Assembly (NCBI GenBank): GCA_000165345.1 | Contig: CM000433.1 | Location: forward strand, 224,001-288,000 | DNA: 64,000 nucleotides | Reading direction: 5' to 3' | In this document: piece by piece, positions 1,419 through 54,065 of the stretch | Position numbering within the stretch: the first letter of the stretch is position 1 | Layout: every line of letters begins with the position of its first letter | Translations under genes and position numbers: made by a program | The notes under the pieces: model-generated | The model's input: the letters and a program-made list of their open reading frames with translations, nothing else | Database searches by the model: none | Told to the model about the DNA's origin: nothing

Positions 1419-4190
1419 TTAAATTAATCCTAAAAGTTGTTTGATTTCATTTGAAACAATAAAAGATTTTTTAATGCCATATATTAACTCTAGACAAATG
1501 ATTAATATCTCATTGCTTTTCTGATCCCAGAAAAAATGAGTTCTCCTAATATTGTTCCATTCAAACCCTTTATTTGGAGTAGCATTAATAAAGTCATTTA
1601 AAGCGTCTCTTTGAGATTGAAAATCCCCATTTAACAACTCAAATGCAATATAATGTATCCACGTATCACCTATCTTATTATCAATTTCCAGTGCACTTTT
1701 GAACCATTTTCTTGACTTATGAAAATCATTTTCTTTCCAAAATGATATTGCAATAGCAACCAATACATAAGGATCATTTCCACACTGTTCTAAAGCAATT
1801 AAAAATTTGGATTTTTGTTTTTGCTTTTGTTCAGTGAAAATGCTTTCTGCGTATAGCAATCCAGATTTTGGGCATTCTTTTAATGCTTTAGATAAAATTT
1901 GTGGGATAAACTCATTATTTCCTGCATTTTTTTCCAACTTAATTGTTTGCATCCACAATTCTGGTTGATTTTTGTTTTTTGAACGGGCCAAATCTAGAAA
2001 TGTTCTAGCTTTCTTCCAATTTTGCAAAAGCATTAATAATTCAATAGTAGAAAACCACAATTCTATTGAATCGCTGCAGAAGTTCAATCCTTCTTCGTAT
2101 ATTTTCAAGGCTTCATTGATCCGATCAGGAAAGGCTTTTCGATAAATAAATCCATATAAAAGCCATAAATTTGGAGAGCTTGGATATTCTTTAACAGACT
2201 CAGAGCAGTAGAGTATACACAAGTCATAGTTTTTTTGGTCATTTTCTAGCTTGATTGATTCAACCCAAATTTGTACCGATGGAGAGTTAGTTCTTTCTCT
2301 CTCTAAAATAATCTTGGCACGTTCTATTTCACCCTGAGATAGTTCTAATCTTGCTGCCTCCAATACTATTTCTTCTTTATCGTTTAAGCTCGAAGAATAT
2401 CCTTTCGACAGAATTAATCGTGCAATTTCGGCATTCCCATTTGCTGATTGATTTTGTGCGGCTTTCAACCAAAGTATTTGTTTGTCCGGACAATTCTTAA
2501 GTGATTTTTGTAAAACATGATCTACCTTTTCAAAGTTACCATACTTTTCTTCAAAATTAGCCCATTTTATCCAAAAATATTCTTTTGACTTAAACATATC
2601 TGCAGATGATTCAAACATAGCACGTGCAGATATTATATTATTTGATTTTATGAAGTTATCTATATAGGAAAAAACTTGATCATTAATTGCGTCATCATCA
2701 ATTCCAAGATTCCATGTATTTTTTATTATTGAAATACATGTATTTGAATAACCCTCTTTTTCGCATTCCCCTGCCCTATTTAACCAATCATCTCTTGAGT
2801 GTACAAACCTTTTAGCGGATAAATTTGAAATACAGCGTTTAACAATTAATTCGACTTTCTCAACTTTTCCATTTTGCTCTTCTAACTTTGCTGCTTCTAC
2901 CCAAATACCAGGAAATGTAGGCAATACTTTTCTTGCTTCATTTAGTATCTTTTGCGCATCGCAGTATTCGCTTAATCTTGCATATCTTAGCCAAAGCTCC
3001 TCAGATTGAGGTACACACTTTACAGCCTTTGATAGTAGAGCTTTTTCAGATTCATTATCAACAAGTGATATTGCTTCTTTCCAAAGTTTAATTGAATTTG
3101 GAATAAATTCAAGAGCTTTTTTAATTATTAGTAACTTTTTATTTTTATTTGTCTCTCTATTAGCTGCAACCATCCAAACTTTAGTTGAGTTTGGGATAAA
3201 TTTTATTGATTTCACAATTATTTTGTCTATTTGTTCTGGCTTTCCTAATCTAATAGCCTCCAGCCAAATATCTTCATTCTTTGGGCACATTTCACAACCT
3301 TTTGCAATAATTTCTCTTGCATGGGAAAGTCTACCTACGAACTCTTCGAATCTGGCTGCAGCTATCCAACCTGGAGAATGTTTAGGGTTTGTATTTACTA
3401 CTGATTTAAGTAATAGCCTTGCTTTTTTAATATCAGATAGATCCCCATTTAATTTAATACCAGCTGTGTTTAAAGAACTGAGATATTTTGATGGGTCAAT
3501 AACAGATTGTCCAGAAACACTGCCCATTGCCTTATCTAATTTTAAAGAAAGGATATTACCCTTAGCTGTTCCAAGCTCATTCAATTCAGTAGTAAGTTCA
3601 GTGTTTAATTCTGAATTAGAACAGTTTTTTTGGGTTAGAGTTTCAAACAAGTTCTTATGTGAAGATTGTATAATTTCATCTGGTACAGGCAAGAAAAGTT
3701 TTGGTTTCTTGTTCTTAATATAATAGTCTCCTGGTTCAGGAATTTGATCCCATTCTTCAATTTTTACGTCCCCCAAAGATTTCTTAAGACCTGAAAACTG
3801 CTCTTGTAAAGTCGGCCTATGTTCTCTTACCTTAAGAATCTCCTCTCTAATTTTCTTTTCTTTTTGTTTTTTTCTTCTGGTAGACAATTTCTCTTCAATC
3901 ATTTCATATATCGAATCTGCTTGCCGATCATCATCATCGTATTTAATATCATTAAATAGATGTTCATTAAACCCAGAAAATTTATCAAACTTGGTATCAG
4001 AATAATCACCAATATCAGCCTCAATTGTAATTGTTTGATCATCTCTACTGACTCCGCTTGCAAACCCAATAGCACCACGGCCTTTTCCAGGAACATAGTC
4101 TGGCGGTGGCTCGCCAAAAATATTATGTTTTTTTGAAATCTGTAGATCTGAAGAATTTATTCCAAGAGGATATGTATAAGAATTATTCAT
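1419..4190 (-). CDS. PRPF6: pre-mRNA-processing factor 6 (PRP6 / U5 snRNP 102 kDa), HAT/TPR repeat protein, 923 aa
   Basis: N-terminal PRP6 domain motif 'PPPDYVPGKGRGAIGFASGVSRDD', followed by about 15 HAT/TPR-like repeats (W..A..LE motifs). ATG at 4188-4190. Confidence 0.85.
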   Translation of the reverse strand: MNNSYTYPLGINSSDLQISKKHNIFGEPPPDYVPGKGRGAIGFASGVSRDDQTITIEADIGDYSDTKFDKFSGFNEHLFNDIKYDDDDRQADSIYEMIEEKLSTRRKKQKEKKIREEILKVREHRPTLQEQFSGLKKSLGDVKIEEWDQIPEPGDYYIKNKKPKLFLPVPDEIIQSSHKNLFETLTQKNCSNSELNTELTTELNELGTAKGNILSLKLDKAMGSVSGQSVIDPSKYLSSLNTAGIKLNGDLSDIKKARLLLKSVVNTNPKHSPGWIAAARFEEFVGRLSHAREIIAKGCEMCPKNEDIWLEAIRLGKPEQIDKIIVKSIKFIPNSTKVWMVAANRETNKNKKLLIIKKALEFIPNSIKLWKEAISLVDNESEKALLSKAVKCVPQSEELWLRYARLSEYCDAQKILNEARKVLPTFPGIWVEAAKLEEQNGKVEKVELIVKRCISNLSAKRFVHSRDDWLNRAGECEKEGYSNTCISIIKNTWNLGIDDDAINDQVFSYIDNFIKSNNIISARAMFESSADMFKSKEYFWIKWANFEEKYGNFEKVDHVLQKSLKNCPDKQILWLKAAQNQSANGNAEIARLILSKGYSSSLNDKEEIVLEAARLELSQGEIERAKIILERERTNSPSVQIWVESIKLENDQKNYDLCILYCSESVKEYPSSPNLWLLYGFIYRKAFPDRINEALKIYEEGLNFCSDSIELWFSTIELLMLLQNWKKARTFLDLARSKNKNQPELWMQTIKLEKNAGNNEFIPQILSKALKECPKSGLLYAESIFTEQKQKQKSKFLIALEQCGNDPYVLVAIAISFWKENDFHKSRKWFKSALEIDNKIGDTWIHYIAFELLNGDFQSQRDALNDFINATPNKGFEWNNIRRTHFFWDQKSNEILIICLELIYGIKKSFIVSNEIKQLLGLI

Positions 4191-4275
4191 TCTTACAAAT
4201 AAAATCTTTGCATTTAAATGTGTCTAATTTTTGTTTCTAAATTACCGCATTTTATATTTAGATGATAATATTCGC

Positions 4276-5066
4276 TTATTTTGTATTAAATTGCTCATTA
4301 ATCAATAGTTCCACATATGCCCTTGGACCTTCTATTATACCTTCCTTAGTTTTAATTATCCATTTCTCATCTTCAAGAAAAGAGATAGTTTTTTCTACTG
4401 AATGTTTTATCTTAACAATCAATTTAATAATTAATATTAAACTTACTTTCTTCTATGGAACAATTTTCAAAGGACTTTTGTGAGCATATTTCCTCAAATG
4501 GAATGGGGTAATCTTTTGAAAAAGTCAGAAGATTGATACGATTTAATATTTACTTACCTTTCTCAGTTATTAGTTTTAAAATATCTGTAATACCTATTAA
4601 TACCAATCCAAATTATGTAAAGTTTACATACCTTTTATTTCATTATAATCTTTAATTTTCTTAAGTCCAAGATTTAGAAATCCAAACTTTTCTTTGCTTA
4701 TGCTTTCTATGCCTTCATTAGAATGAACGTTACTCCTTAGACCAATGAAGTCGTTTTCGTTATTTCCCTTAGTGAATACAACTTCTAATAAAAGCGAACA
4801 TAATTCATCATTGCAGGCATTGACCAATTCAAAAATATTTTCAAAATCTCCTCTTGAGTTCTCCTAATACTGATGAGATTTTTATAATAAATATTATTAC
4901 TTACATTTAATACATTTAGGAAATTATTTGCATCTTTCACACTTGTTACCTAGCAAAAGTAAAGTGGTTTAATTGTCTAACAGAGGTAACTCACTTTTAC
5001 AAGAAGCATGCACTGAATAAATAAAGAGATAACTTTACTTCTTCCAGTTATTGTTCCAGAAATCAT
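4276..5066 (-). CDS. predicted 6-exon small gene (187 aa, unknown function) in an apparent intergenic gap
   Basis: Manual splice model on the minus strand. Exons: 5066..4995, 4949..4905 (45-nt micro-exon), 4863..4632, 4584..4558, 4512..4447, 4397..4276. All five introns are 41-49 nt with GTGAGT/GTAAGT/GTATGT donors and AG acceptors. Phases are consistent (the last four junctions are all phase 1) and the model ends at a TAA. Product: MISGTITGRSKVISLFIQCMLLVK|VTSVKDANNFLNVLN|ENSRGDFENIFELVNACNDELCSLLLEVVFTKGNNENDFIGLRSNVHSNEGIESISKEKFGFLNLGLKKIKDYNEIK|DILKLITEK|DYPIPFEEICSQKSFENCSIEE|IEKTISFLEDEKWIIKTKEGIIEGPRAYVELLINEQFNTK. This replaces the track ORFs 4624..4827(-), which is really a TTG-start fragment of exon 3, and 4262..4483(+). 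Confidence 0.4.
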
Positions 5067-5141
5067 TTTGTGAGAAGATATTAGCGCTCTAATAATTTCT
5101 ATATTTTATTATTAATCATTAATTGCTGGCTTTTGAATAAT

Positions 5142-5773
5142 ATGATTTCTGATCTTATAATTAAAGAAGAAGTTGGGCCAGGAAATGTCCCTAAGGCTCT
5201 ATTTATTTCATCAATAGAAGAATTTGTTGGCGATAGACCAGTTTATGGTATATTAGAAAATATCCAGTTACTTAATAGAAAATATAAAATAATGGAAAGT
5301 TCAATAAAGACTCAACAAGAATATCTTATTGCCAAGATTCCAGATATTGAATTGGCAATAGAATCGGTTTTTCAAAGAAAAAAATTGCTGGTACGTTAAT
5401 TGTTTAAAAATCTAGAACATTAATATTAATTTAGGAGAATAACTTGAATAAAAACGAATTATACTTTCCTGTTTCTGACAATTTATTTGCAAAATGTTCT
5501 TCTCCCCCGTCAAATACAATTTACCTTTGGTTAGGTGTAAGTTATTAAAGAATTATTTGATTATTTAACTCCTTTTAGGCAAATACAATATTAGAATATC
5601 CATTGGAAGAAGCGATTGAAGTGTTAAAGAGTAATCTTTCTACAGCTAAAAACACGATAAAACTATACCAGGAATCCTTAGATTTCATTAGGGAACAAAT
5701 AACCATTATGGATGTAAACACCGCGAGAGTTCATAACTACGGTGTTATGCAAAGAAAACAAAACAAAGTATAG
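5142..5773 (+). CDS. VBP1: prefoldin subunit 3 (VBP1/GIM2-like), 3 exons
   Basis: Exons 5142..5390, 5435..5536, 5579..5773. Introns 5391..5434 (GTACGT...TTTAG) and 5537..5578 (GTAAGT...TTTAG). The track ORF starts at a TTG (5133); the true ATG is at 5142 (MISDLIIKEE...). The spliced product '...ELYFPVSDNLFAKCSSPPSNTIYLWLG|ANTILEYPLEEAIEVLKSNLSTAKNTIKLYQESLDFIREQITIMDVNTARVHNYGVMQRKQNKV' is colinear with the prefoldin-3 core motif ('...DNLY.K...PP.......LWLGAN.MLEY...'). Confidence 0.75.
5391..5434 (+). other. spliceosomal intron 1 of prefoldin-3 (44 nt, GTACGT...AG)
   Basis: An in-frame stop follows immediately after 'GTACGT'. Splicing restores conserved prefoldin-3 sequence. Confidence 0.7.
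5537..5578 (+). other. spliceosomal intron 2 of prefoldin-3 (42 nt, GTAAGT...AG)
   Basis: Joins '...YLWLG' to 'ANTILEY...' in frame. Confidence 0.7.
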
Positions 5774-5926
5774 TTTATCACTCTTAAAATAGATAATTAA
5801 TACTTTTTCTAGGATTGGAAGAGTCACGCATTATTGCAAACTAACCTAGGAACAAACTAATTAGAAATAAATATCTAAAAGTTCATTCTCTCACATTAAA
5901 TTGACCGATGAATGTAATAATAAACT

Positions 5927-6385
5927 TCATGGACTCATATTACCCTTTTTACCTTTTTTCCCTATTAAAGCCTTACCCATAAGAGACTTTTCTATGTGAG
6001 GTATTACACCACCACCTGCAATTGTGGCCTTAATAAGGGAGTCCAGCTCTTCGTCACCTCTAATGGCAAGTTGAAGATGTCTAGGCGTAATACGTTTGAC
6101 TTTAAGATCCTTTGAAGCATTACCAGCCAATTCGAGTACTTCAGCGGTCAAGTATTCCAAAATTGCAGCTGCGTAAACAGAGGCAGTTGAACCTACACGA
6201 CAATCTCCTGGAATACGATGCTTTAGCATACGTTGAATACGGCCGACTGGAAACTGAAGCCCTGCACGAGCTGCTCTGGAAGTCGGTTGCTTCTTACTTC
6301 CCTTACCAGAACCTGCTTTTCCTTTTCCACCAACCTTGCCACCAACTTTACCACCTATTTTACCTGATGAGGTTGCGCCATCCAT
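5927..6385 (-). CDS. H2AZ: histone H2A.Z variant (152 aa) with apicomplexan-type GGK-repeat N-tail
   Basis: The core '[15 protein letters not shown]...[59 protein letters not shown]' is essentially identical to H2A.Z and distinct from canonical H2A. The N-tail carries '[13 protein letters not shown]'. The track start (6394) is a TTG; the true ATG is at 6383-6385 (MDGATSSGK...). Confidence 0.9.
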
Positions 6386-6516
6386 AATTAGCAATATTAA
6401 AAATATAAGCAGTCTTGGTTAAAAAGATATTTCTTCGTTAAGCTCAATACAAATGAACTTTATCAGATGATATAATGAGCAGATTATTTTGTTTCATGTG
6501 GACAAATTAGACATTA

Positions 6517-6523
6517 GGCGCGC
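6517..6523. promoter_or_regulatory. E2F-like GGCGCGC motif about 130 bp upstream of H2A.Z in the divergent promoter
   Basis: 'TTAGGCGCGCAC' is the only GC-rich island in the 6395-6914 promoter region. GGCGC-type E2F-like boxes are a recognised Cryptosporidium promoter motif class (established knowledge). Function here is inferred. Confidence 0.3.
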
Positions 6524-6914
6524 ACTAAATACCGCAATACAGTAAATTGCATGAGTAATTTTTAAATCGTAAAAAAGTAAAGTGCCACTATTTAGTTTTT
6601 CTAACTCGATTACATTTTTAATTTCGACCTCTGCATTTTGGTTAGTTTATATGGGTTTTGTTCATTAATAATACACTTATTTTTGAAATTAGAGTAGTAG
6701 CCTCTATTCAAATCAACGCTAAAATGCGATTACAATCGTATTCGATTTCTTATTTACGTTTATAAATATTCATATGTATTATTATTATATATGTATTACA
6801 ATCTGGCTAAGGTTAAAATTATTAGTTCCGCATCAATAAGTATTTTTGCTCTTAGTTTGGAAAAAAAGGTCTAGGTAGTGCGCCAGTTCTTGATAATAGT
6901 TAAGATGTCAAAGA

Positions 6915-17047: not shown

Positions 17048-19159
17048 TTAATTATCCCCATTTTTTAATATTGTAGTTGTATTAATTGGGTTTGATGTTT
17101 TTATTTGTATTATTTTCTCGTTCTCAGGTAGCAGAGTTGTATTTTGTGCAGCACAATTCAATTGCGGAACAAACTTTAATTCATTTGAAAATAAAGAATT
17201 TTGAGAATTGTTTTTACTCAAATTAGCATTAGCATTATTTGATTGACATACACCTGGAGAAATTCCAAACGGAACTGCCATTTCTGAGTGAATTTGAGAA
17301 TTTAAAGGGAAAAGGGTTAAATTTGAATCGTTTTTTTGCTTATTAATAATTCCAGAGTTATTTAATAAACTTTGTGTTTCGTATGACCCCATATGATTTA
17401 ATGGGATATAATATGGATACATAGATGAGTTAGTATTGAGTATTAAATATGGACTTGATGTTCCAGTTGGGTGCAAAATTGTAGGAAGCTGAACTTGAGA
17501 AAAGTTTCCAAGAGCAATTGATTGATTAATTCCACAAATGTTTTGTATTGAACTCCCTATTAATGAGCTATTTCTCAAAGATTCAAATAAATCTTGTTGT
17601 ATATTTTGACTTTTAGCGCTATTTTTTTCACCAGTAATAATTTGAGACTCCATGTCGACATTAACTATACTGTTTTTATGGGTGCCTCCATTATCTTCAA
17701 AATTGTTAATTGTTGCTTTAACCATTCTTGCATGCGCCATAGTAGGAGTGTCACTGCAATCAATAGATATAGGAGTTGTTCCAGCGCTTGAGCAATTACT
17801 CAAGTTATCTGACATTTGAATAGATGTTGTATTTTGGGAGGATGAAAGCATATTAAAGGCTTTTAACCTTTCTATGGTAAGGCTTGTATCAAGCTTCTTA
17901 GTATTGTCTAGATAGTTTATGAAGTCATGAAGATATGATTGTTGCTGCGCTAAAGAACTAATTACTGGGTTGAAAGTGACCGGAGAATTTTGCTGTATCA
18001 TGAATTGTGAAATCGGTACCTGCGAATTTATTTTTGAAGCGAACTGTAATTGAATTTTGCTCAAATCTAACTGTGATGATAGTGACTCAGATGAGCTACA
18101 TGATTGAAGCTGCTCAAGATGACATCTTTCATCCTTATCAAAAACAGAAGTTTTATTTAATGGTGTTGATTCTTCTGAATTATCGTTTCTATTATTGTAC
18201 TTCAGAATAGGAGCTGACAAAAAAAAGTTATGTGTTCCGTTTGTTCGTGCATATTCTAGAAATCTTTGCATGACAGTGATTAAAGTTTTTTCGGCCATCT
18301 CAGCTGTAACGTCATTTAATTCATGATCTTTTGATACTTGTAGTTTCCAAACAAGCCTAACTGATTGTAAATGATCACAGAAAACTACGTAATCTTGAAG
18401 TGCAAACTGATGGCGATAAGAATAATGCCAGTTCCTATTTAAAAAACTTGTTTGATTGCTATGCTTGGCACAATAAGTCTGTTGAGGGCATAAAGTTGCA
18501 GCAAAATAATTACAATCATCTACAACATCACCATATGCTTCGTAAACACACCTTGGAACCATTAAATTACCACCTTTTGGTGGTAGGTACAATATTTTCC
18601 ATTGCCCAACAATTTTTTCTCTTTTGTCAGCTTTTGGGATACAGTCACAAGAAGGACAAAGAGTCCACCTTTTCTTTCTACCTGTAAAGCCAACGGTAAT
18701 AACTGTTCGATCCATTGTGTCGTTAGATAATCTAGTGCTACGCTTACTAAAGTCGAAAATATAACCATCGACTTCATCTTGATGTGTAACAGCATACCTT
18801 CTTAATCCAATAGTTCCGGGCTCATAATGAGAAATGATAACATTTCTTTCAGTCTCATTAGAAACTTTTTCGAACAATTCTTTTTCAAAACTTATATTCA
18901 TAGAGTCAGCAAAACTACAGAATGAAGGTACATGACGTGGTTTCTGTCTATGAACTGGAGTTTTCGATGCATAAGGTTTACGTATAATCGTAGTTCCATT
19001 ATTTGTATTCATTCTGAGATTATTTTGCATTCCTGGATTTGAAACTGTTTCATGCATAAGCTGATTACGTTTAAAAGATAATTCCTTTATTTCATTAATT
19101 GACTCACTTGTATCCGTCTCTTTAATTTCAATTATTGGCGTTTTTTTAATTTCAAACAT
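17048..19159 (-). CDS. paralog A of a head-to-head gene pair: nuclear/DNA-binding-like protein with a conserved ~230-aa Cys/His-containing domain plus Asn/Ser/Gln-rich tail, 703 aa
   Basis: Shares with 20398..22713 the blocks 'KPRHVP', 'GTIGLRR', 'TFRG..KRW..CP', 'YFAATLCPQQTY' and a following ~80-aa region. Low-complexity C-terminal half. ATG at 19157-19159. Confidence 0.6.
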   Translation of the reverse strand: MFEIKKTPIIEIKETDTSESINEIKELSFKRNQLMHETVSNPGMQNNLRMNTNNGTTIIRKPYASKTPVHRQKPRHVPSFCSFADSMNISFEKELFEKVSNETERNVIISHYEPGTIGLRRYAVTHQDEVDGYIFDFSKRSTRLSNDTMDRTVITVGFTGRKKRWTLCPSCDCIPKADKREKIVGQWKILYLPPKGGNLMVPRCVYEAYGDVVDDCNYFAATLCPQQTYCAKHSNQTSFLNRNWHYSYRHQFALQDYVVFCDHLQSVRLVWKLQVSKDHELNDVTAEMAEKTLITVMQRFLEYARTNGTHNFFLSAPILKYNNRNDNSEESTPLNKTSVFDKDERCHLEQLQSCSSSESLSSQLDLSKIQLQFASKINSQVPISQFMIQQNSPVTFNPVISSLAQQQSYLHDFINYLDNTKKLDTSLTIERLKAFNMLSSSQNTTSIQMSDNLSNCSSAGTTPISIDCSDTPTMAHARMVKATINNFEDNGGTHKNSIVNVDMESQIITGEKNSAKSQNIQQDLFESLRNSSLIGSSIQNICGINQSIALGNFSQVQLPTILHPTGTSSPYLILNTNSSMYPYYIPLNHMGSYETQSLLNNSGIINKQKNDSNLTLFPLNSQIHSEMAVPFGISPGVCQSNNANANLSKNNSQNSLFSNELKFVPQLNCAAQNTTLLPENEKIIQIKTSNPINTTTILKNGDN

Positions 19160-20397
19160 TTTTACAACTTATTAAACGGCTTTATTTTAAATAATTTCAC
19201 TGAGAACTATCTTAATAAATACCTGAAGTTGTTAAAAAGTAGTTGTAATAATAATTTTGTCCCAGTGATTCAGATATTGATGATTCTTTTAAATAACTTA
19301 ATAAATTTTTTTTCATCTAATATAGCATTGAATTTGTAAGATACAAAGTTTTAATAAATGTTATGAGTGTCCACGTTTATCGTATGAAAGTATTCCAAAG
19401 ATATTTATTTAAATATAAATATTGTATATGCGCATATTTTTTTTAATGGAATATATATATTTTGTAATATTGTTTTAATCTATTTTCATAGACCACAATG
19501 TACCTCTAATACAACTATTGGATATAGACACTCAAATCCTATTGATTAATATATTATTATCATAAGTCCTTGCACCCAAAAGTTATTGATATAATAAGTT
19601 TTGTATTTTTGTCATCACAAGATAATAATGTGTGATGCATGCATGATTTTTGCATTTAGTGTCTACTTAGTGTGCATTTATTTGAGCGCTAATTTTTATA
19701 GGTATTAATTGTGGATTATAAAATGAGAATATAAAGCAATTATATACAATTTTTAATCTTTCACAAAACTATTACAAAGAAGCAAACACATAAATAGCTT
19801 ATGTAGTTATTAATATATTTACGGGTTTAGTCTAATAAAATTTTCATTAATTGAATTTTTAAAATAAACGACATTCCATAAAATTGCATGTAAATTTTTT
19901 TAGTAATTTACCGGTAATTAGCATATATTCATGCTTGCATGAATATACCGCCCCCACGTTAGGCGCCAACTTGCATCAATAACATACGTGTGCTAGAAAG
20001 ATATTAAAGGCAAGATTCCGCTAAAAATAGAGATATCATTATCTGCCGACATTTGTGTGAACAACTGCACGCATGTCAGGTGGCTGCTTATCCCACAAAA
20101 TAAATAATAATTAAGTATCGTATAGAGTACCATCTATAACTTTAGCTAGTGGCGAAAGTGGAAAATCTAATAATTTAAAATATTTATTAAAATAATAAAG
20201 ATATCGTCTAAAATAAAGTAAAATATAGAATTAAATACAAAAACAATAAATAAAAATTAAAACCCATTTTTTTAAAATTATAATGCAACAAGAAATTAAC
20301 CAATAAAGAAAGAGAATTAAATTACAAAAGCGTTTTTACGAAATTAGGCGATAATTGGATTATAATTTCGACATTTTCGCATTTTGCGTCTATCAAC
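19160..20397. promoter_or_regulatory. 1.24 kb bidirectional regulatory region between divergent paralogs, with a TGCATGCA/TGCATG motif cluster and an E2F-like GGCGCCAA box
   Basis: TGCATGCATG at 19636-19645. TTGCATT/GTGCAT follow nearby. TGCATG at 19885-19890. CATGCTTGCATG at 19930-19942. GGCGCCAA at 19962-19969. GCACGCATG at about 20068. Perfect palindrome ATATGCGCATAT at 19426-19437. This is by far the longest non-coding stretch in the window. Confidence 0.4.
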
Positions 20398-22713
20398 ATG
20401 TCGGATTTTCACTGTAATTCAGTGGACAGTGATATAATTTATGAGTATGAAAATATTTCGGTGAACCAAATGATTGGAGTTAGGAATGGGTTTCGAAGCC
20501 AGGATAATATACATCGAAGCGATGTAGAATTAAGTAAACAAGGTTACAATGGCTTAAAAGATGGGATAGTAAGTAATTCATCAGAAGTCAACGCATATAA
20601 CAGAAGTGTGAATCCCAATAGGCGTGGAGGCAAGTTGAAGCCAAGACATGTTCCTGATTTCGTATTAATATCGCCTGAAGATGTAGATAGATTACTCTCT
20701 ACAGTAACGACTTTAGATGAAAGAAAGACAATAATGAACAATTATGAGCTTGGGACTATTGTATTAAGAAGGCTATGCATAAGCGAAAGTAGCGAAATCA
20801 AAGCTTTTATGGACTCGATTCAAATGAGAACAACAGGAAAAGCATTAGAAAGCCATGAACGGAATATAATTTGCTTGACTTTTAGAGGGCAGCCTAAGAG
20901 GTGGGTGTTTTGTCCATGCAGAAGCTGTTTATTTAAAGGTAAGGCACATGATAAATTAATGGGCCATTTTAAAATTATGGAGCATGATACTCAGACAAAC
21001 AAATTTCAAATCTCTAAGAACGTTTATGATTCATATGGCGTTTTCATGGCTTCTTGTGGCTATTTTGCTGCCACGTTTTGCCCCCAACAAAATTATTCTT
21101 CGCATAAAGTATTTGTCGGCCCTACAATTTCAGATTTGAAAGGCAGGATTCATGATCGATATATATTATTCATCAATGACTCAAAAGTTATACAAATGGC
21201 ATGGAGAAGAAAACAGAATTATTCCTTTGAATGCGAGGAATTACTTAGTAATGTAATGTCCAAGTTGATAGTTTGTGGGAAATCAGGTCATGTACAGATG
21301 ATAAATCAGTTGAGTAAAGGATACTCTGGACTAATATCTCTTCCACTTAAATTACGTTTCCATTGCGAAAACTTAGAAAAACAGCCTAATTCGATTAGTT
21401 CGGTAAATGAATTTAGCAAAGGGGGAGTTGGCTTAGTCAATAAAAAGAACAAGAGAAAAATGAGCAAGAGGAATATGGAAGATTGGGATATTATAAATTC
21501 AGATAAATTTTTGAATGATGCAAATGAACTTCAGAATGCTTATAGCAAAGGTATGGATCAGAGTCTGACATCCAAATCTTATTCTTTTCCAAATTCTCCA
21601 ATAGTAAGGGTTCAAAATAACCAATATTATAATTCAGATAGCAATTCTTTAACTCCAAGATGTACAAAACAGTACATTTCAGAATCAGGGCATGATATTG
21701 ATGGTGAGACTCTAACTTCTAATAGATATGGCTGTATTGTTGGCGATGTATCTACTGCATCAGCAACACCTATTGCAGAAAGCGCAGATTGCATTATTAA
21801 CAAGCAGTTTAATAATTATAATTCAAAGATTTTGGATTGCATTCAAACAATAAATAAAAGCGGGTTATCATTAAACGATATGAGTAGAGGCATTTATGCA
21901 GGTAGCCCGTTGGATCCAAATTCCTTCATTTCAAAAGTTCCAATTCCATCTTCCTTCTTCAACAATATAGGCCAAAATAAGATTTTGATGAATAACATTG
22001 ACGCAAATAAGGCAGATAGATACGGGAATAAATCAAATAGCAAAAACTGGCTTGGATCATTAGAAAATGAAAATGAAAACCCAAATATAAAACAATTAAA
22101 AGAGAACTATTTGTATGGGGATTTTTCACAGGGTAATGGAATTTTTAGATCACATTTTCAACAGAATTTCATAAATGAAGGAGCTCACTTCAATTTTAAT
22201 CCTTTGGCATTTTCTTCTGATTCCGCAACCAACCCAATTCTACAAAATGAGACAATTGAAGAGGAATCCATAAACAAGCAAAATTTTAACGGTGGATTTA
22301 TAATAAATGGTATCGCTGCAAACCAATCAATCTCTTTATATAGGCAAGTTTTTTCTACGAATGAAATCACAACTCCAAATTCTACGCTTGAAATTTCATC
22401 ACCCATACAACAGATTCAACATTCATTTATTTCAGATGGAATGGGTCAAGAACAGAACAGCCAAATTAATATTATTCAACAAACGCAAAATATCGTTAAC
22501 CCTGGAACATATAGTGATGTATTTGGAGAAGATGTAACACAATGCGCTTCATGCGAGCATTGCTCAATTGGTGGGTATCCTTATTATTGCAATTGCTATA
22601 AAATGCCATCTGAATCAGCAGCTAGCTCTAATGTTATCGATGTTAATGATACTGCAGGAGTCTTTCAGTTGAATAATCAATTTATTCATGCTTCACATGA
22701 GGTGGATACATAG
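20398..22713 (+). CDS. paralog B of the head-to-head gene pair (same conserved domain as 17048..19159), 771 aa
   Basis: 'KPRHVPDF...GTIVLRRL...CLTFRGQPKRWVFCPCRSC...YFAATFCPQQNY' is colinear with paralog A. Asn/Ser/Gln-rich tail; a C-terminal Cys cluster 'CASCEHCSIGGYPYYCNCY'. ATG at 20398. Confidence 0.6.
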   Translation: MSDFHCNSVDSDIIYEYENISVNQMIGVRNGFRSQDNIHRSDVELSKQGYNGLKDGIVSNSSEVNAYNRSVNPNRRGGKLKPRHVPDFVLISPEDVDRLLSTVTTLDERKTIMNNYELGTIVLRRLCISESSEIKAFMDSIQMRTTGKALESHERNIICLTFRGQPKRWVFCPCRSCLFKGKAHDKLMGHFKIMEHDTQTNKFQISKNVYDSYGVFMASCGYFAATFCPQQNYSSHKVFVGPTISDLKGRIHDRYILFINDSKVIQMAWRRKQNYSFECEELLSNVMSKLIVCGKSGHVQMINQLSKGYSGLISLPLKLRFHCENLEKQPNSISSVNEFSKGGVGLVNKKNKRKMSKRNMEDWDIINSDKFLNDANELQNAYSKGMDQSLTSKSYSFPNSPIVRVQNNQYYNSDSNSLTPRCTKQYISESGHDIDGETLTSNRYGCIVGDVSTASATPIAESADCIINKQFNNYNSKILDCIQTINKSGLSLNDMSRGIYAGSPLDPNSFISKVPIPSSFFNNIGQNKILMNNIDANKADRYGNKSNSKNWLGSLENENENPNIKQLKENYLYGDFSQGNGIFRSHFQQNFINEGAHFNFNPLAFSSDSATNPILQNETIEEESINKQNFNGGFIINGIAANQSISLYRQVFSTNEITTPNSTLEISSPIQQIQHSFISDGMGQEQNSQINIIQQTQNIVNPGTYSDVFGEDVTQCASCEHCSIGGYPYYCNCYKMPSESAASSNVIDVNDTAGVFQLNNQFIHASHEVDT

Positions 22714-22792: not shown

Positions 22793-24313
22793 TTAGGTTA
22801 TTTCTTTGTATTCGACATCTTCGAAAACTAATTCGTTAATAGGCTTTGGTCTCCAAACAGAATTCTGGTAAGTGGACGAATTAGGGTCGTTTGCATTTGA
22901 ATAATTTACGTTGCTTGGTAAAGTCCAAATATCTTTTTGCCTAGTTGTAATCTCAATAGATCCTCTTTTTTCACCTATTAAATCAGATGCGCTTCTCGTT
23001 TTTCTTAGTTGACCAGACGTATTCATAAAGTATTTTCCTGCGAGCTTTCCTGCATTTATCATAGTTAGAACGCCCATTGCAAGGGGGAGCTGAGTGTCAA
23101 GCATATTTCCTTTCATTCCGTCTAATTTTGGTACTTCTTCCGTTATCCCATCGTTATCAGTTACACTTTCGTCAACTGCCTTTTTAAATGCTAGAATTTC
23201 TCTGATTGACATCACGATTACGAATGATGTGGTAATAATAATTCCAAAGGAAAATATTATTGTCATTATGAATGTAAATCCTTCAAATTCGTGAAATTTA
23301 GTGAACCCTCCAAAAGTACTAAAAAGTGTCCAAAATACGTAATATGCAGGCACAACCAAAGTTGCATCTCCCATAGCTAGACCCAGATTAAGAAAATGCA
23401 TCTGAAGCCAAGTTGAAGTGGAGAAAAATATAAATGCGAGGTACGGTTGTATGTTATACATCCAATCTTTAGTATGCTGCAAAGCAAATTCACCCCAAGC
23501 AACCATTTCTTTTATTTCAAGGACACATTGGGCACCTATTAGGCCTGCCAAAAAACCATATAACATACTTATATATTTAGGATATTTAGGAAGATTAATT
23601 TTTATTTTTGCGTGATTATTCAAATTTAGTGAATTGTTTGGGGATACTTTCCCAGTTGGAATGATACCAAGCGAATCTTCGTCCAGAGATTTCAATATTG
23701 CCCTTCTTGTTTGAATTTCTTTTTGCTCATTGTATTTTGCCTCTTCATTATTGATTACGATCAAGACAGCCAATGCACAAATAAAACAAAAAATTATATA
23801 AATTAAATAATACGGATCTGACCAAGATTCAATCCCTGAATATTTAGTCGTTGGGGCTTCGGTCGGAATAACTGATGCAATTGCACATAGACAAATTCCA
23901 AAAATGACCCCTACTGTGGAAATCAATTCAAAAATTCCAAACTGTTCATCAAGCAGAGTTGCTGCAGCGAATGCATTAGCAACTAAACCAAAACTATTCA
24001 TTGGCGCTAAAATTGAGGCTGGCGCAAACCCGAGTGCAATAATATGAATAATTGCCCCAAAAGCGTATGAAATAACACCTATCCACCATGTAACTTCATT
24101 ATAAGCCATACTATAAACGTTAGTTTGAGAATCGTTGATACATTTTTGCTGTTGGATGTGTAGACCTTTCTTCATATACGCATTTCCAAATGCCATAAAG
24201 CAAGATCCCACAATAGTAAGCACAATTCCAATCGTCAAACTAAGCACTGGAAAGTTTGTGATTAGCATAAAAAAATAACTCTCCTCCATATTTTCATCTT
24301 TGAAGAGGGACAT
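22793..24313 (-). CDS. NIPA-like Mg2+ transporter (DUF803 / DMT superfamily), multi-pass membrane protein, 506 aa
   Basis: About 9 hydrophobic segments. 'VISYAFGAIIHIIALGFAPASILAPMNSFGLVANAFAAATLLDEQFGIFELISTVGVIFGI' matches the NIPA family core. Confidence 0.6.
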   Translation of the reverse strand: MSLFKDENMEESYFFMLITNFPVLSLTIGIVLTIVGSCFMAFGNAYMKKGLHIQQQKCINDSQTNVYSMAYNEVTWWIGVISYAFGAIIHIIALGFAPASILAPMNSFGLVANAFAAATLLDEQFGIFELISTVGVIFGICLCAIASVIPTEAPTTKYSGIESWSDPYYLIYIIFCFICALAVLIVINNEEAKYNEQKEIQTRRAILKSLDEDSLGIIPTGKVSPNNSLNLNNHAKIKINLPKYPKYISMLYGFLAGLIGAQCVLEIKEMVAWGEFALQHTKDWMYNIQPYLAFIFFSTSTWLQMHFLNLGLAMGDATLVVPAYYVFWTLFSTFGGFTKFHEFEGFTFIMTIIFSFGIIITTSFVIVMSIREILAFKKAVDESVTDNDGITEEVPKLDGMKGNMLDTQLPLAMGVLTMINAGKLAGKYFMNTSGQLRKTRSASDLIGEKRGSIEITTRQKDIWTLPSNVNYSNANDPNSSTYQNSVWRPKPINELVFEDVEYKEIT

Positions 24314-51245: not shown

Positions 51246-54065
51246 TCACTCATTAGATTGAGAACTATTTTTATCATTGTTTAATGAGGGCGGTGAAGAA
51301 TAACCAAATTTGACGGAGTCGGAAGTATCTTCGTTAGGAACAAACTTAGAGAATAAAGGCGCAACTTCCGTACCATTTAAGGGGGATAAAGCGAATTTGC
51401 CTTGAGAAGTGCCATTTGTGAGTATTAAGCTTGAACTAATGTATCTTTCATTATTTAAATTTGTAGTTTGATTCATTGTGTTTGAGCTTCCAGGCGCTCT
51501 ATCAAGCTGATCGGATTTATCTTTTATATAATTAGGATTAGATTCAGTTGAATTTAATGAATTGATATTGGTTCCATTGTATTGTGATTGACTTGAGTTC
51601 GAGACATTATTTATAACGTTAGCTGGTGTAGTTGTAGTTGTAGTGTACTTTTTGAAAATGTGTTGATTTTGTAATAAGTCTGTTTGCTTTTCTGACCTTT
51701 TATCTGTTGCATTATTAGATTGATTGATTCTATTTTTTGCATCAGAGTTGTTATCGTAAGTTTTATTCGTTTCCTTAGTCGCTTCAGGAGAAGTAGTATT
51801 TAATAACTTTTTTTGGGCTGGAATAATTAAATTTGAGTCATCATTTAACTGGGTGTTAGTAGGCTGTAATCTATTATTATTTTGAGATAAAAGCATTAAA
51901 GTATTTGAAAGCGAGCTGTTAATGCTAGCTGTGGTGGCGGTTGTTGTTGTAGTGGTAGTGGTAGTAGTTGTGGTAGTAGTTGTGGTAGTAGTTGTGGTAG
52001 TAGTTGTGGTAGTGGTAGTAGTAGTAGTAGTTGTTGTTGTTGTAGACGTTGTATAATATGGCTTAAAGAATTCCTTTTTTGGTAGGAAAGAAATATTGTT
52101 TAGATCTATTTGGTTAAAAAGAGATGATTTACTAGCTTTTTGAGAACTGTTTGTATTCTCTCTGAGCCTCCTATTCACAGATGCAATTTTGCCAACATTG
52201 GAAGCGTTCAAAAATAGGTTTGCTTCAGTAGTAGTAGTGGTTGTTGTGGTAGTAGTAGTTGTGGTAGTAGTAGTTGTTGTGGTAGTAGTAGTAGTAGTAG
52301 TTGTTGTTGTTGTTGTCGTAGTTGTAGTTGTTGTGGTAGTAGTTGTTGTGGTAGTAGTAGTTGTTGTGGTAGTTGTAGTAGTTGTGGTAGTTGTAGTAGT
52401 TGTGGTAGTAGTAGTTGTTGTGTAATATGGCTTAAAGAATTCCTTTTTTGGTAGGAAAGGAATATTGTTTAGATCCATTGGATTTATAAATGTTGATTTT
52501 ACAGTTTCTTGTGGGCTATTAGGACTNNNTNNNTANNNTNNNNNTTNTNNGANGCANTAGNANNANNNNNNGATANNNNNANNNNTNNNNNNAGNATNNN
52601 CNNNNNGNNGNNNTNGNNNNNGNNNNNGTANTNNNTNGNTNNNTNNNTAGNGGTGAANNGAGNANTGGTANTNGTGGTAGTAGNTGTNNTTGNGGNACGG
52701 TTGTAGNANTTNTNGTGGTGAGNNGTNNNANNTNNANNAGTAGNNNNGGTAGTANNNNNNNTTGNANNGTNTNGNANTANTAANGTTNNGNTANNGAANT
52801 ANNANTAGNTNTNNTAGTNNTAGTAGTAGTAGTAGTTGTTGTTGTTGTTGTGGTANTAGTAGGTAGTTGNTGNNGTTGTGGNAGTAGTAGTTGTNGTGGT
52901 GGTAGNAGTTGTTGNTGTTGTGGTAGTTGTAGTAGTTGTTGTGGTAGNTGTAGTAGTTGTGGTAGTAGTTGTAGTAGTAGTTGTAGTTGTGTAATATGGC
53001 TTAAATGGGATTCAAAAATTTTTCTTTCATTTGGAAAAATGGATTGTTTAAATCTATNGGAAGAAAAAAGTTTGGTTTTGCAATTTCCTGCGATGAATTT
53101 GAATTGATTTGTGAAACTTCATTGCTTGCTGTGATACCTAAACTTGGCGAGTTCAAAGCTAGACTTTCTGCAGTGGTAGTAGTTGTGGTAGTTGTTGTTG
53201 TTGTGGTGGTAGTAGTTGTGGTAGTGGTAGTTGTTGTTGTTGTGGTAGTGGTAGTNGTNGTTGTTGTGGTAGTGGTAGTTGTAGTAGTTGTTGTTGTGGT
53301 AGTAGTAGTAGTTGTTGTNGTNGTNGTTGTTGTGGTAGTGTAGTGGNTAGTTGTTGTAGTGTGGTGGGTAGTTGTGNTGGTAGTAGTAGTTGTGGTAGTG
53401 GTAGTAGTAGTTGTGGTAGTGGTAGTAGTAGTTGTAGTTGTTGTTGTGGTGGTAGTAGTAGTAGTTGTTGTTGTTGTCGTGGTTGTGGTAGTTGTAGTTG
53501 TTGTTGTGGTGGTAGTAGTAGTTGTAGTAGTTGTAGTTGTGGTTGTGGTAGTTGTAGTTGTTGTGGTAGTTGTTGTGGTAGTTGTAGTTGTAGTTGTTGT
53601 TGTGGTTGTGGTAGTAGTAGTTGTTGTGGTTGTGGTGGTAGTTGTTGTTGTGGTAGTTGTTGTCACTGGTCTAAATGGTCTAAAGAATTGTTCTTTCATT
53701 TGGAAAAATGGATGGCTTAAATCCATTGGATTAAAGAACGACGAGGACTTCACAGTCGAATCGTTTCCCAGTAACACTTTAGAACTATCCAAATTAGTGC
53801 TATTTGTATACTCAGTAGATAAAGGCATTCCGGGCAAATCGATGCCACCTATGCCAGTTAATATACCTTCAGAAGCATTTTTACTGTTTGTTACGTAGGA
53901 TTCATCTATATTACTTGGTGTGATTTGATTACCTCCTAACTCACTATTCCATGCCTCTGATTTATTTTCAGAGTATGTGATGGTATTAACTTCACATAAA
54001 GCATACTTTGAAAATTGAAGCAGAAGAAAGAAAAATAAAGTCGAAAAAACCTGTAGAAAATTCAT
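51246..54065 (-). CDS. secreted mucin-like glycoprotein with four poly-threonine tracts separated by a repeated aromatic/basic module; spans a low-quality N-containing patch and one apparent frameshift
   Basis: Signal peptide 'MNFLQVFSTLFFFLLLQFSKYALC' (ATG 54063-54065). Modules read 'DLSHPFFQMKEQFFRPFRPV-(T)n', 'IDLNNPFFQMKEKFLNPI', 'DLNNIPFLPKKEFFKPYY-(T)n' and 'IDLNNISFLPKKEFFKPYYTTS(T)n'. Ser/Asn/Thr-rich C-terminus. The track ORFs 53001..54065 and 51246..52478 are parts of one gene. Confidence 0.6.
51932..52052 (-). repeat. poly-Thr (ACN)n coding tandem repeat, tract 4
   Basis: (GTAGTAGTTGTG)n-type trinucleotide array on the plus strand. Confidence 0.8.
52228..52424 (-). repeat. poly-Thr (ACN)n coding tandem repeat, tract 3
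   Basis: GTN triplet array about 200 bp long. Confidence 0.8.
52527..52856. other. degenerate, N-interspersed consensus inside the poly-Thr region (unresolved or collapsed repeat)
   Basis: Single bases alternate with runs of n, but the GTN periodicity is still visible ('gtggtagtagntgtnnttgngg'). Confidence 0.7.
52857..52990 (-). repeat. poly-Thr (ACN)n coding tandem repeat, tract 2 (continues into the N patch)
   Basis: GTN triplet array with scattered n. Confidence 0.7.
53170..53670 (-). repeat. poly-Thr (ACN)n coding tandem repeat, tract 1 (~165 codons)
   Basis: About 500 bp of uninterrupted GTN triplets, with a few n. Confidence 0.8.

Follow-up and report, generated by a model that had tools for sequence, protein, structure and literature searches.

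Ancient SLARP-family paralogs flanking a conserved divergent spacer on Cryptosporidium parvum chromosome 5

A 64-kb stretch of Cryptosporidium parvum Iowa II chromosome 5 (64,000 nucleotides, hereafter the window) carries two divergently transcribed genes, cgd5_1000 (gene A; 17048..19159, minus strand) and cgd5_1010 (gene B; 20398..22713, plus strand), which share an intergenic spacer of 1238 bp (19160..20397). Both are annotated as hypothetical proteins. On sequence comparison, they are ancient paralogs of the SLARP/SAP1 family, and A appears to be the SLARP-type copy. In Plasmodium, liver-stage development depends on SLARP/SAP1, and genetically attenuated sporozoite vaccine candidates carry its deletion (PMC2398788, PMC7878544). 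With modest confidence, we favour a joint reading of the locus in which two ancient SLARP/SAP1 paralogs are driven together from a conserved spacer and act in a SLARP-like manner on zoite gene expression. The open reading frame (ORF) of A encodes 703 aa and is identical to EAK88139.1/Q5CRY5, that of B encodes 771 aa and is identical to EAK88137.1/Q5CRY4, and the C. hominis counterparts of the two differ by 13-14 residues. A literature search by gene IDs, accessions and SLARP together with Cryptosporidium found no study of cgd5_1000 or cgd5_1010, while one automated annotation labels the C. felis ortholog of A as a putative SLARP.

An earlier note on this stretch, made by a model from the sequence alone, had described A and B as paralogs over about 230 aa. 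BLASTP agrees, giving one significant segment between them (28% identity and 49% positives over 227 aa, E=7e-31) that includes the motifs quoted there, KPRHVP, GTI[GV]LRR, KRW..CP and YFAAT.CPQQ.Y. The shared domain spans aa 59-310 in A (18230..18985, minus strand; KPRHVP at 18926-18943 and GTIGLRR at 18797-18817) and aa 67-300 in B (20596..21297, plus strand; KPRHVP at 20638-20655), and a tblastn search of the window for the family found A and B only. The same note could not place this block in any known family. It indeed lacks a match in Pfam or to any PDB sequence or fold, but it can be placed as a homolog of SLARP.

To find the family elsewhere, we built a HMMER profile from Cryptosporidium and three close non-Cryptosporidium sequences, with no Plasmodium sequence in it, and searched 1.84 billion representative proteins. 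This exhaustive search yielded 28 proteins in total: Cryptosporidium A and B orthologs, a third set of Cryptosporidium paralogs, gregarine transcripts (Selenidium, Siedleckia and Trichotokara), some environmental sequences, two bacterial VCBS-repeat proteins, and four Plasmodium SLARPs, which the Plasmodium-free profile matched at E=6e-30 to 3e-23. No coccidian or piroplasm protein was detected among the 1.84 billion. In direct BLASTP comparisons, A matches P. relictum SLARP with 36% identity over 149 aa (E=2e-27) and B matches it with 29% identity (E=6e-12); no Plasmodium counterpart of B itself, an older paralog, was detected. The third of the word-indexed protein searches, made with the broad alignment, returned five proteins and left this distribution unchanged. 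The two bacterial VCBS-repeat proteins, which reached E=1e-17, were set aside as spurious, as their scores are the sum of 16-26 tandem repeats at 0-7 bits each, none of which aligns with the invariant tryptophan or cysteine residues of the domain.

The match to SLARP falls in two places. The core of the domain (profile positions ~88-240) aligns to the last ~160 residues of SLARP, and the N-terminal part (profile positions 12-59, KPRHVP...HYE.GTI.L) aligns to SLARP residues 2-50. In three species, this SLARP N-terminus (MRKGKPRHVPMF...HYDIGLIVL) aligns at 16-17 bits (conditional E about 2e-7), and KPRHVP is identical between it and the Cryptosporidium domain. The two halves are separated by ~30 residues in Cryptosporidium versus ~2,500-3,100, largely Asn-rich, in Plasmodium SLARP (P0029, P0030, P0032, P0035). 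Read from these alignments, the termini of SLARP are two halves of one domain of ~250 aa that is contiguous in Cryptosporidium. We did not find this split-domain architecture stated in the literature searched.

A neighbour-joining tree, a distance method applied here to a short alignment of 153 columns, groups A with the gregarine proteins and SLARP (96% bootstrap) and leaves B and the third paralog outside. As SLARP falls with A and not with B, the duplication that gave rise to A and B appears to be ancient rather than a recent local or tandem event. The third Cryptosporidium family is more divergent, with proteins of ~770-1,500 aa that carry the domain mid-protein (P0040-P0043, including C. 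canis OJ253_1851 and C. ryanae FG386_001878), and the Logan sequences P0033 and P0034 are related to it. Cryptosporidium has three paralog families, two of them head-to-head, whereas a single gene was detected in Plasmodium.

SLARP has been described as a protein of ~3,000 aa, with 30-40% low complexity and "no known domain", specific to Plasmodium (PMC2398788, PMC7878544); published reviews treat it as genus-specific (PMC7878544), and a 2023 paper calls it 'the unclassifiable TF' (PMC9973277). It resembles A and B in its invariant W, K and Cys3His residues, in the N-terminal element KPRHVP...HY[DE].G.I.L, in its long Asn-rich low-complexity sequence, in being expressed during the production of invasive zoites, and in having a large upstream region with [T/C]GCATG AP2 sites. 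It differs in length (2,760-3,380 aa against 700-770 aa) and in that its domain is split by the insert of ~2,500-3,100 aa, whereas that of A and B is contiguous at the N-terminus. The low-complexity part is accordingly an insertion in SLARP and a C-terminal tail in A and B. Compared with the literature searched, the additions made here are the presence of SLARP beyond Plasmodium, the apparent split of its domain, and an invariant Cys3His set on a predicted fold without solved relatives.

That set is part of a signature of ten residues (W, C, C, K, T, C, P, Q, Y and H) invariant in the 28 homologs of all subfamilies, which in A are W165, C168, C173, K182, T222, C224, P225, Q227, Y229 and H233. 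The cysteines and histidine are spaced C-x4-C-x44-60-C-x7-8-H and are probably a structural zinc site. The putative ligands, placed by alignment, are Cys168 and Cys173 (within 18641-18667) with Cys224 and His233 (within 18461-18496) on the minus strand in A, and Cys172 and Cys177 (within 20902-20928) with Cys228 and His236 (within 21073-21105) on the plus strand in B. The core has an isoelectric point of 8.5-9.4 in four of the five subfamilies. Its conserved columns include three basic ones but none that is acidic, which argues against a metal-dependent hydrolase. Such a basic core fits nucleic-acid binding without amounting to evidence of it.

AlphaFold2 models of A have a confidence (pLDDT) of 72 over the full domain and 85 over the core. 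Comparing the confident model with PDB structures gave no match, so the fold, as modelled, has no detectable likeness to any solved structure. Nor did Pfam match either protein or any of the 28 homologous domain segments, and profile searches of PDB sequences gave nothing at E<=10. The 'RW..C....C' pattern had suggested a WRKY-GCM1 zinc finger. The likeness to WRKY-GCM1/FLYWCH-type fingers is superficial. It consists of a conserved Trp that precedes, by two residues, a Cys closing a beta-strand, of a C-x4-C knuckle with Cys/His ligands further on, and of strands that follow the order strand-strand-strand-(insert)-strand in the domain model. The four-stranded zinc-ligand fold was not recovered in structure comparison, and this lead was dropped. 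A classical CCCH finger (C-x8-C-x5-C-x3-H) was also rejected, as the spacing differs and the best zf-CCCH-type Pfam match reached only E=1.4, in four of the 28 members.

Beyond the domain, both proteins continue into tails of ~400 aa whose composition bears out the earlier description of them as Asn/Ser/Gln-rich (N 13%, S 13-15%, Q 6-8%; the domain part has N 6-7%). The tail of A covers aa 321-703 (17051..18199, minus strand; N 13%, S 15%, Q 8%) and that of B aa 331-771 (21388..22710, plus strand), the latter with a small C-terminal Cys cluster, CASCEHC...CNC (C-x2-C-x2-C...C-x-C; 22530-22600, plus strand). UniRef labels one C. hominis ortholog of B 'C2H2-type domain-containing', and in Pfam the cluster gave only a weak match to DUF2284, below the cut-off (E=0.066). 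In overall design, A and B are like the ApiAP2 factors, which are also lineage-restricted, with long low-complexity regions, stage-specific expression and a compact basic domain as the only conserved part. They differ in their predicted fold, and in that ApiAP2 factors carry the DNA-binding AP2 domain, while binding by A and B is only predicted; full-length A and B have no Pfam hit to AP2 at E<=1.

The spacer between the two genes is, as the earlier note had it for non-coding stretches, the longest ORF-free segment of the window (the next are 942 and 522 bp). Seven Cryptosporidium species, including this one, share the gene order NIPA - B - spacer - A - TFIIIC, and in the six others (chipmunk genotype I, C. 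ubiquitum, C. canis, C. felis, C. ryanae and C. muris) the spacer measures 1197-1646 bp. Aligning the seven shows mostly unalignable AT-rich DNA and two conserved regions. In the C. parvum ATCC (CPATCC_002101) and C. tyzzeri annotations, A starts at Met35 (19055-19057) and has 669 aa; this start would make the spacer 1340 bp, and the first 34 codons of A may be 5' untranslated region.

The more strongly conserved region is a B-proximal module (19936..20084), 314-460 bp upstream of the B start. Its 134-nt core is 99, 96, 95, 85, 85 and 77% identical to chipmunk genotype I, C. ubiquitum, C. canis, C. felis, C. ryanae and C. muris, respectively, whereas whole-spacer identity across the same six species runs from 77 to 37%. 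The core consists of invariant pieces of 6-23 nt between linkers that vary in both sequence and length. Along the module lie a TGCATG/CATGCA (19936-41; kept in all seven species), a G-box (G.GGGG) read on the minus strand as GTGGGGGCGG (19948-57; GTGGGG matches), and an E2F site AGGCGCCAAC (GTTGGCGCCT on the other strand; 19961-70), which exactly matches the E2F-like Motif 3 (DTTGSCGCCH) and has GGCGCCAA at 19962. These are followed by ACATACGTGTGCTAGA with GCACAC (19982-97), GATTCCGCTAAAAA (20014-27), ATTATCTGCCGACATTTGTGTGAA (20038-61) and CTGCACGCATGTCAGGTGG (20065-83). The E2F box TTGGCGCC is kept in 5/7 species and its GCGCC in 7/7. Among the invariant pieces is AGCACACGTATGT, which includes the AP2_2 motif GCACAC, and several others match no named factor. 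The module also contains a 9-bp complementary pair, ACATGCGTG (19982-19990) and CACGTATGT (20067-20075), lying ~80 nt apart; a single G-U change is its only variation among the seven species. The pair adds no net folding stability, and could represent paired half-sites for a dimeric factor.

The A-proximal block (19630..19679), defined by cross-species alignment, holds GTGTGATGCATGC and lies 480-530 bp upstream of the A start. It contains the AP2_1 site TGCATGCA (19636-19643), kept in all seven species, with TGCATGCATG at 19636-19645, then the conserved TTAGTGTCTAC (19656-19666) and GTGTGCATTT (19670-19679), which has the AP2_2 core GCACAC, the second occurrence of this core in the conserved blocks, and a match to HTGCACH. 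The region also carries TGCATGCAT, which matches Motif 1 (BGCATGCAH), and ATGCACAC. The ApiAP2 protein cgd2_3490 binds [T/C]GCATGC[A/G] (motif definitions in PMC3734150 and PMC12246861). Read on the other strand as GTAGACACTAA, TTAGTGTCTAC is near Motif 18 (WTAGACR) of Oberstaller et al. 2013, with one mismatch in C. parvum and an exact match at this position in C. ubiquitum, C. canis and C. felis; Motif 18 is enriched upstream of a single expression cluster, cluster 30, which includes cgd5_1000 and cgd5_1010 (Oberstaller et al. 2013). Further from B lie two short blocks, ACCACAATGTACCTCTA (19492-19508) and TTGCACCC (19570-19577), kept in 5-6 of the seven species. A match to snoR11, a C/D-box small nucleolar RNA, overlaps these (19490-19569, minus strand), but it reaches 19.4 bits where the gathering score is 50 (E=3.3), its box motifs are poor, and it is probably due to chance.

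All motif positions cited in the earlier note (19636-19645, 19885, 19936, 19962 and 19426) hold the motifs named, and the significance attached to them held in part. The AP2_1 site TGCATGCA, the CATGCA at 19936 and the E2F box are conserved, whereas two others are specific to this species: TGCATG at 19885, and the 12-bp palindrome ATATGCGCATAT (19426..19437), which occurs in none of the six other species and is probably not functional. The note had also asked whether the motifs exceed background. Across the window TGCATG does not (35 found against 30.4 expected), but it occurs at 4.0/kb in the spacer versus 0.5/kb in the window's other intergenic DNA. With only three independent sites, the spacer figure is modest by itself. 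The strong evidence for the spacer motifs is instead their conservation across species, as matches to the published consensus sequences are conserved in 5-7 of the seven orthologous spacers.

We also considered a hidden protein-coding exon in the spacer, and rejected it, as ORFs there reach at most 46 aa and the conserved blocks carry indels of 1-2 nt between species. In its motif content the spacer is like other divergent E2F/AP2 promoters of C. parvum (families of Oberstaller et al. 2013), with matches to Motif 1, Motif 3, the G-box, Motif 8 (HTGCACH) and AP2_2. It is set apart from these by its 134-nt block, which retains 77% identity as far away as C. muris, and from the other divergent spacers of the window by being at least 2.4 times as long.

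To compare the expression of the two genes, we used the RT-PCR (reverse transcription PCR) time course of Mauzy et al. 2012 (PMC3305300), which is normalised to 18S and covers 2, 6, 12, 24, 36, 48 and 72 h in four replicates. Gene names were assigned by mapping its primers (supplementary file 3) onto the ORFs of the window. Those for cgd5_940, 950, 990, 1000, 1010 and 1020 all fall within the matching ORFs, and since the cgd5_1000 primers lie at 18635 and 18799 and the cgd5_1010 primers at 22315 and 22434, A is cgd5_1000 and B is cgd5_1010. From 2 to 72 h, the medians as a percentage of the maximum are 0, 0, 100, 8, 37, 6 and 10 for cgd5_1000, and 2, 8, 100, 9, 36, 18 and 5 for cgd5_1010 (Pearson r=0.99). 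Both genes thus peak at 12 h and rise again at 36 h. At 12 h the parasite is an immature meront, in which apical-complex and inner-membrane-complex genes are transcribed, and the 12 h/36 h periodicity corresponds to successive rounds of merogony.

Oberstaller et al. 2013 grouped 2,949 genes into 200 fuzzy clusters (PMC3734150), and A and B both fall in cluster 30 (38 genes), with memberships of 0.999 and 0.98. The probability of B falling in the cluster of A by chance is about 1.3%. Three motifs are enriched in the upstream regions of this cluster: Motif 1 (AP2_1), the E2F-like Motif 4, and Motif 18 (Oberstaller et al. 2013). The earlier note had proposed a co-regulated pair, naming unrelated expression beforehand as grounds for giving this up. 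The profiles are closely related, and co-regulation is supported by the time course, the shared cluster, and the enrichment of that cluster for AP2_1 and E2F-like motifs.

In the joint reading, the spacer would be a bidirectional regulatory region read by a TGCATGCA-binding ApiAP2 of the cgd2_3490 type, by E2F/DP, and by factors that bind the G-box and GCACAC. These would drive A and B together during merogony, and the two proteins would be loaded into the forming zoites. There they would act in the nucleus like SLARP, setting the gene-expression programme needed after the next invasion, with the zinc-stabilised basic domain contacting nucleic acid or chromatin-bound factors. The transcription-factor-like role proposed earlier gains plausibility in this more general form, because the domain is homologous to SLARP, which controls sporozoite and liver-stage gene expression; by analogy, A and B probably act like SLARP on the gene expression of the next intracellular stage. 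The regulation of SLARP offers a parallel, as AP2-Sp, which binds TGCATG, has chromatin immunoprecipitation (ChIP) peaks in the large region upstream of Plasmodium SLARP. Because of this parallel, the regulatory edge from AP2 to SLARP may be ancestral.

Several points weigh against this reading. Binding of factors to the spacer is predicted from motif matches, DNA, RNA and zinc binding of the domain are likewise predictions, and the spatial closeness of the four putative ligands is assumed rather than read from model coordinates. Many members of cluster 30 are structural and signalling genes of zoites, not regulators. The RT-PCR measurements come from bulk material, are probably not strand-specific, stop at 72 h, and cover merozoite formation only. 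The next gene downstream of B, cgd5_1020, is also in cluster 30 (membership 0.94) and follows B at r=1.00. This likeness may reflect read-through in a non-strand-specific RT-PCR or regional co-regulation, and part of the co-expression of A and B could likewise be a neighbourhood or read-through effect. Finally, one group places SLARP/SAP1 in the cytoplasm and proposes a role in mRNA stabilisation (as given in PMC7878544).

This last point leads to an alternative in which A and B are cytoplasmic post-transcriptional regulators after the SAP1 model, with the domain binding and protecting mRNAs stored in zoites rather than acting at promoters. SAP1 was reported to be cytoplasmic in P. yoelii, with specific mRNAs being degraded without it (Aly et al., as described in PMC7878544). 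A basic Cys3His module suits RNA binding as well as DNA binding, and expression during zoite formation is consistent with mRNA storage. On the other hand, SLARP-mCherry is nucleus-associated in P. berghei, where reporter plasmids are said to indicate action at the promoter level, and the Cys/His spacing is unlike that of the classical RNA-binding C-x8-C-x5-C-x3-H, with no CCCH family matched. We regard a cytoplasmic role as unlikely. We are equally doubtful of a bolder version of the nuclear role, in which the SLARP domain would be an unrecognised zinc-dependent, sequence-specific DNA-binding fold, ancestral to Apicomplexa and kept in Cryptosporidium, gregarines and Plasmodium. The head-to-head paralogs would then bind their own spacer (for example at ACATGCGTG/CACGTATGT) as an auto- or cross-regulatory switch that sets the post-invasion zoite programme, and Plasmodium SLARP would be a transcription factor acting directly, with a DNA-binding domain that escaped notice through being split by the 2.5-kaa insert. 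The grounds for this putative DNA binding are the basic isoelectric point and the invariant Cys3His set.

The shared profile of A and B might also be a regional or technical effect (open chromatin, read-through, polycistronic transcription or non-strand-specific RT-PCR), with the motifs serving only one of the genes. The membership of three adjacent genes (cgd5_1000, 1010 and 1020) in one cluster is in keeping with this, as is polycistronic transcription, which has been reported for C. parvum (PMC12246861 and 10.1101/2025.01.17.633476). The two conserved blocks also lie at different distances, and could be separate promoters. However, read-through cannot link A and B, because they are transcribed divergently; cgd5_990, the neighbour on the other side of A, is anticorrelated (r=-0.48); and the head-to-head pairing of A and B is kept across the whole genus. 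This explanation seems to us less likely still than a cytoplasmic role.

Another way to account for the long spacer is a third gene, with the 134-nt block at 19936-20084 being an unannotated small non-coding RNA. The block stays almost unchanged as far as C. muris (77% identity, against 37% for the spacer otherwise), a degree of conservation usual for structural RNAs, and the 9-bp complementary pair is kept in all seven species. However, a search of Rfam at E<=10 gave nothing for 19936-20084, compensatory changes are absent from all 36 predicted pairs, and the folding of either strand is no better than that of its shuffled versions (z=+0.68 and +1.58). The conserved pieces also coincide with published C. 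parvum promoter motifs (E2F, G-box, AP2_1 and AP2_2). The lack of an Rfam match, of covariation and of unusual folding stability favours a cis-regulatory module over an RNA gene, which we consider very unlikely. Equally improbable is that A and B are not gene regulators but a structural or signalling module of zoites, on whose function the likeness to SLARP is uninformative: cluster 30 is mostly calmodulin, centrin, articulin, PLC, kinases and membrane or secreted proteins, and the domain model has no recognised nucleic-acid-binding fold, but SLARP, the only studied family member, has a gene-expression phenotype, and long N/S/Q-rich tails with a basic Cys/His core are typical of nuclear regulators.

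The family is older and wider than described, including Cryptosporidium and gregarines. The compact Cryptosporidium proteins offer a tractable route into the mechanism of SLARP, a question standing since 2008. They suit structure determination, zinc analysis, and DNA- and RNA-binding assays, and suggest complementation with a "mini-SLARP" in Plasmodium. They also add two or three candidate stage regulators in Cryptosporidium that are absent from current transcription-factor lists (PMC12246861). The spacer, in turn, would be a rare deeply conserved cis-regulatory module that can be dissected with reporters.

The genes on either side of the pair are cgd5_990 upstream, which encodes 1983 aa with a weak match to the TFIIIC B-block, and cgd5_1020 downstream (22793-24313, minus strand), a NIPA-type Mg transporter of 506 aa. 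The latter is convergent with B, with 79 bp between the two stop codons. Elsewhere in the window, the stretch 4191-6914, which appears to be empty of ORFs, contains an intron-bearing prefoldin-like gene and a histone H2A gene. The coding sequence of the former lies in two ORFs (5133-5399 and 5603-5773, plus strand), and is probably cgd5_930 with one intron; the adjoining H2A gene is cgd5_940 (5927-6394), for which an internal ATG is the likely true start. Two adjacent ORFs at 51246-52478 and 53001-54065 (both minus strand) have long ACN-codon repeats, which cause an extreme GC skew (0.64) at 52-54 kb. The translation of the second shows a hydrophobic stretch at its N-terminus and an extended run of threonines, and the X residues within that run place at least some of the window's 159 N bases there.

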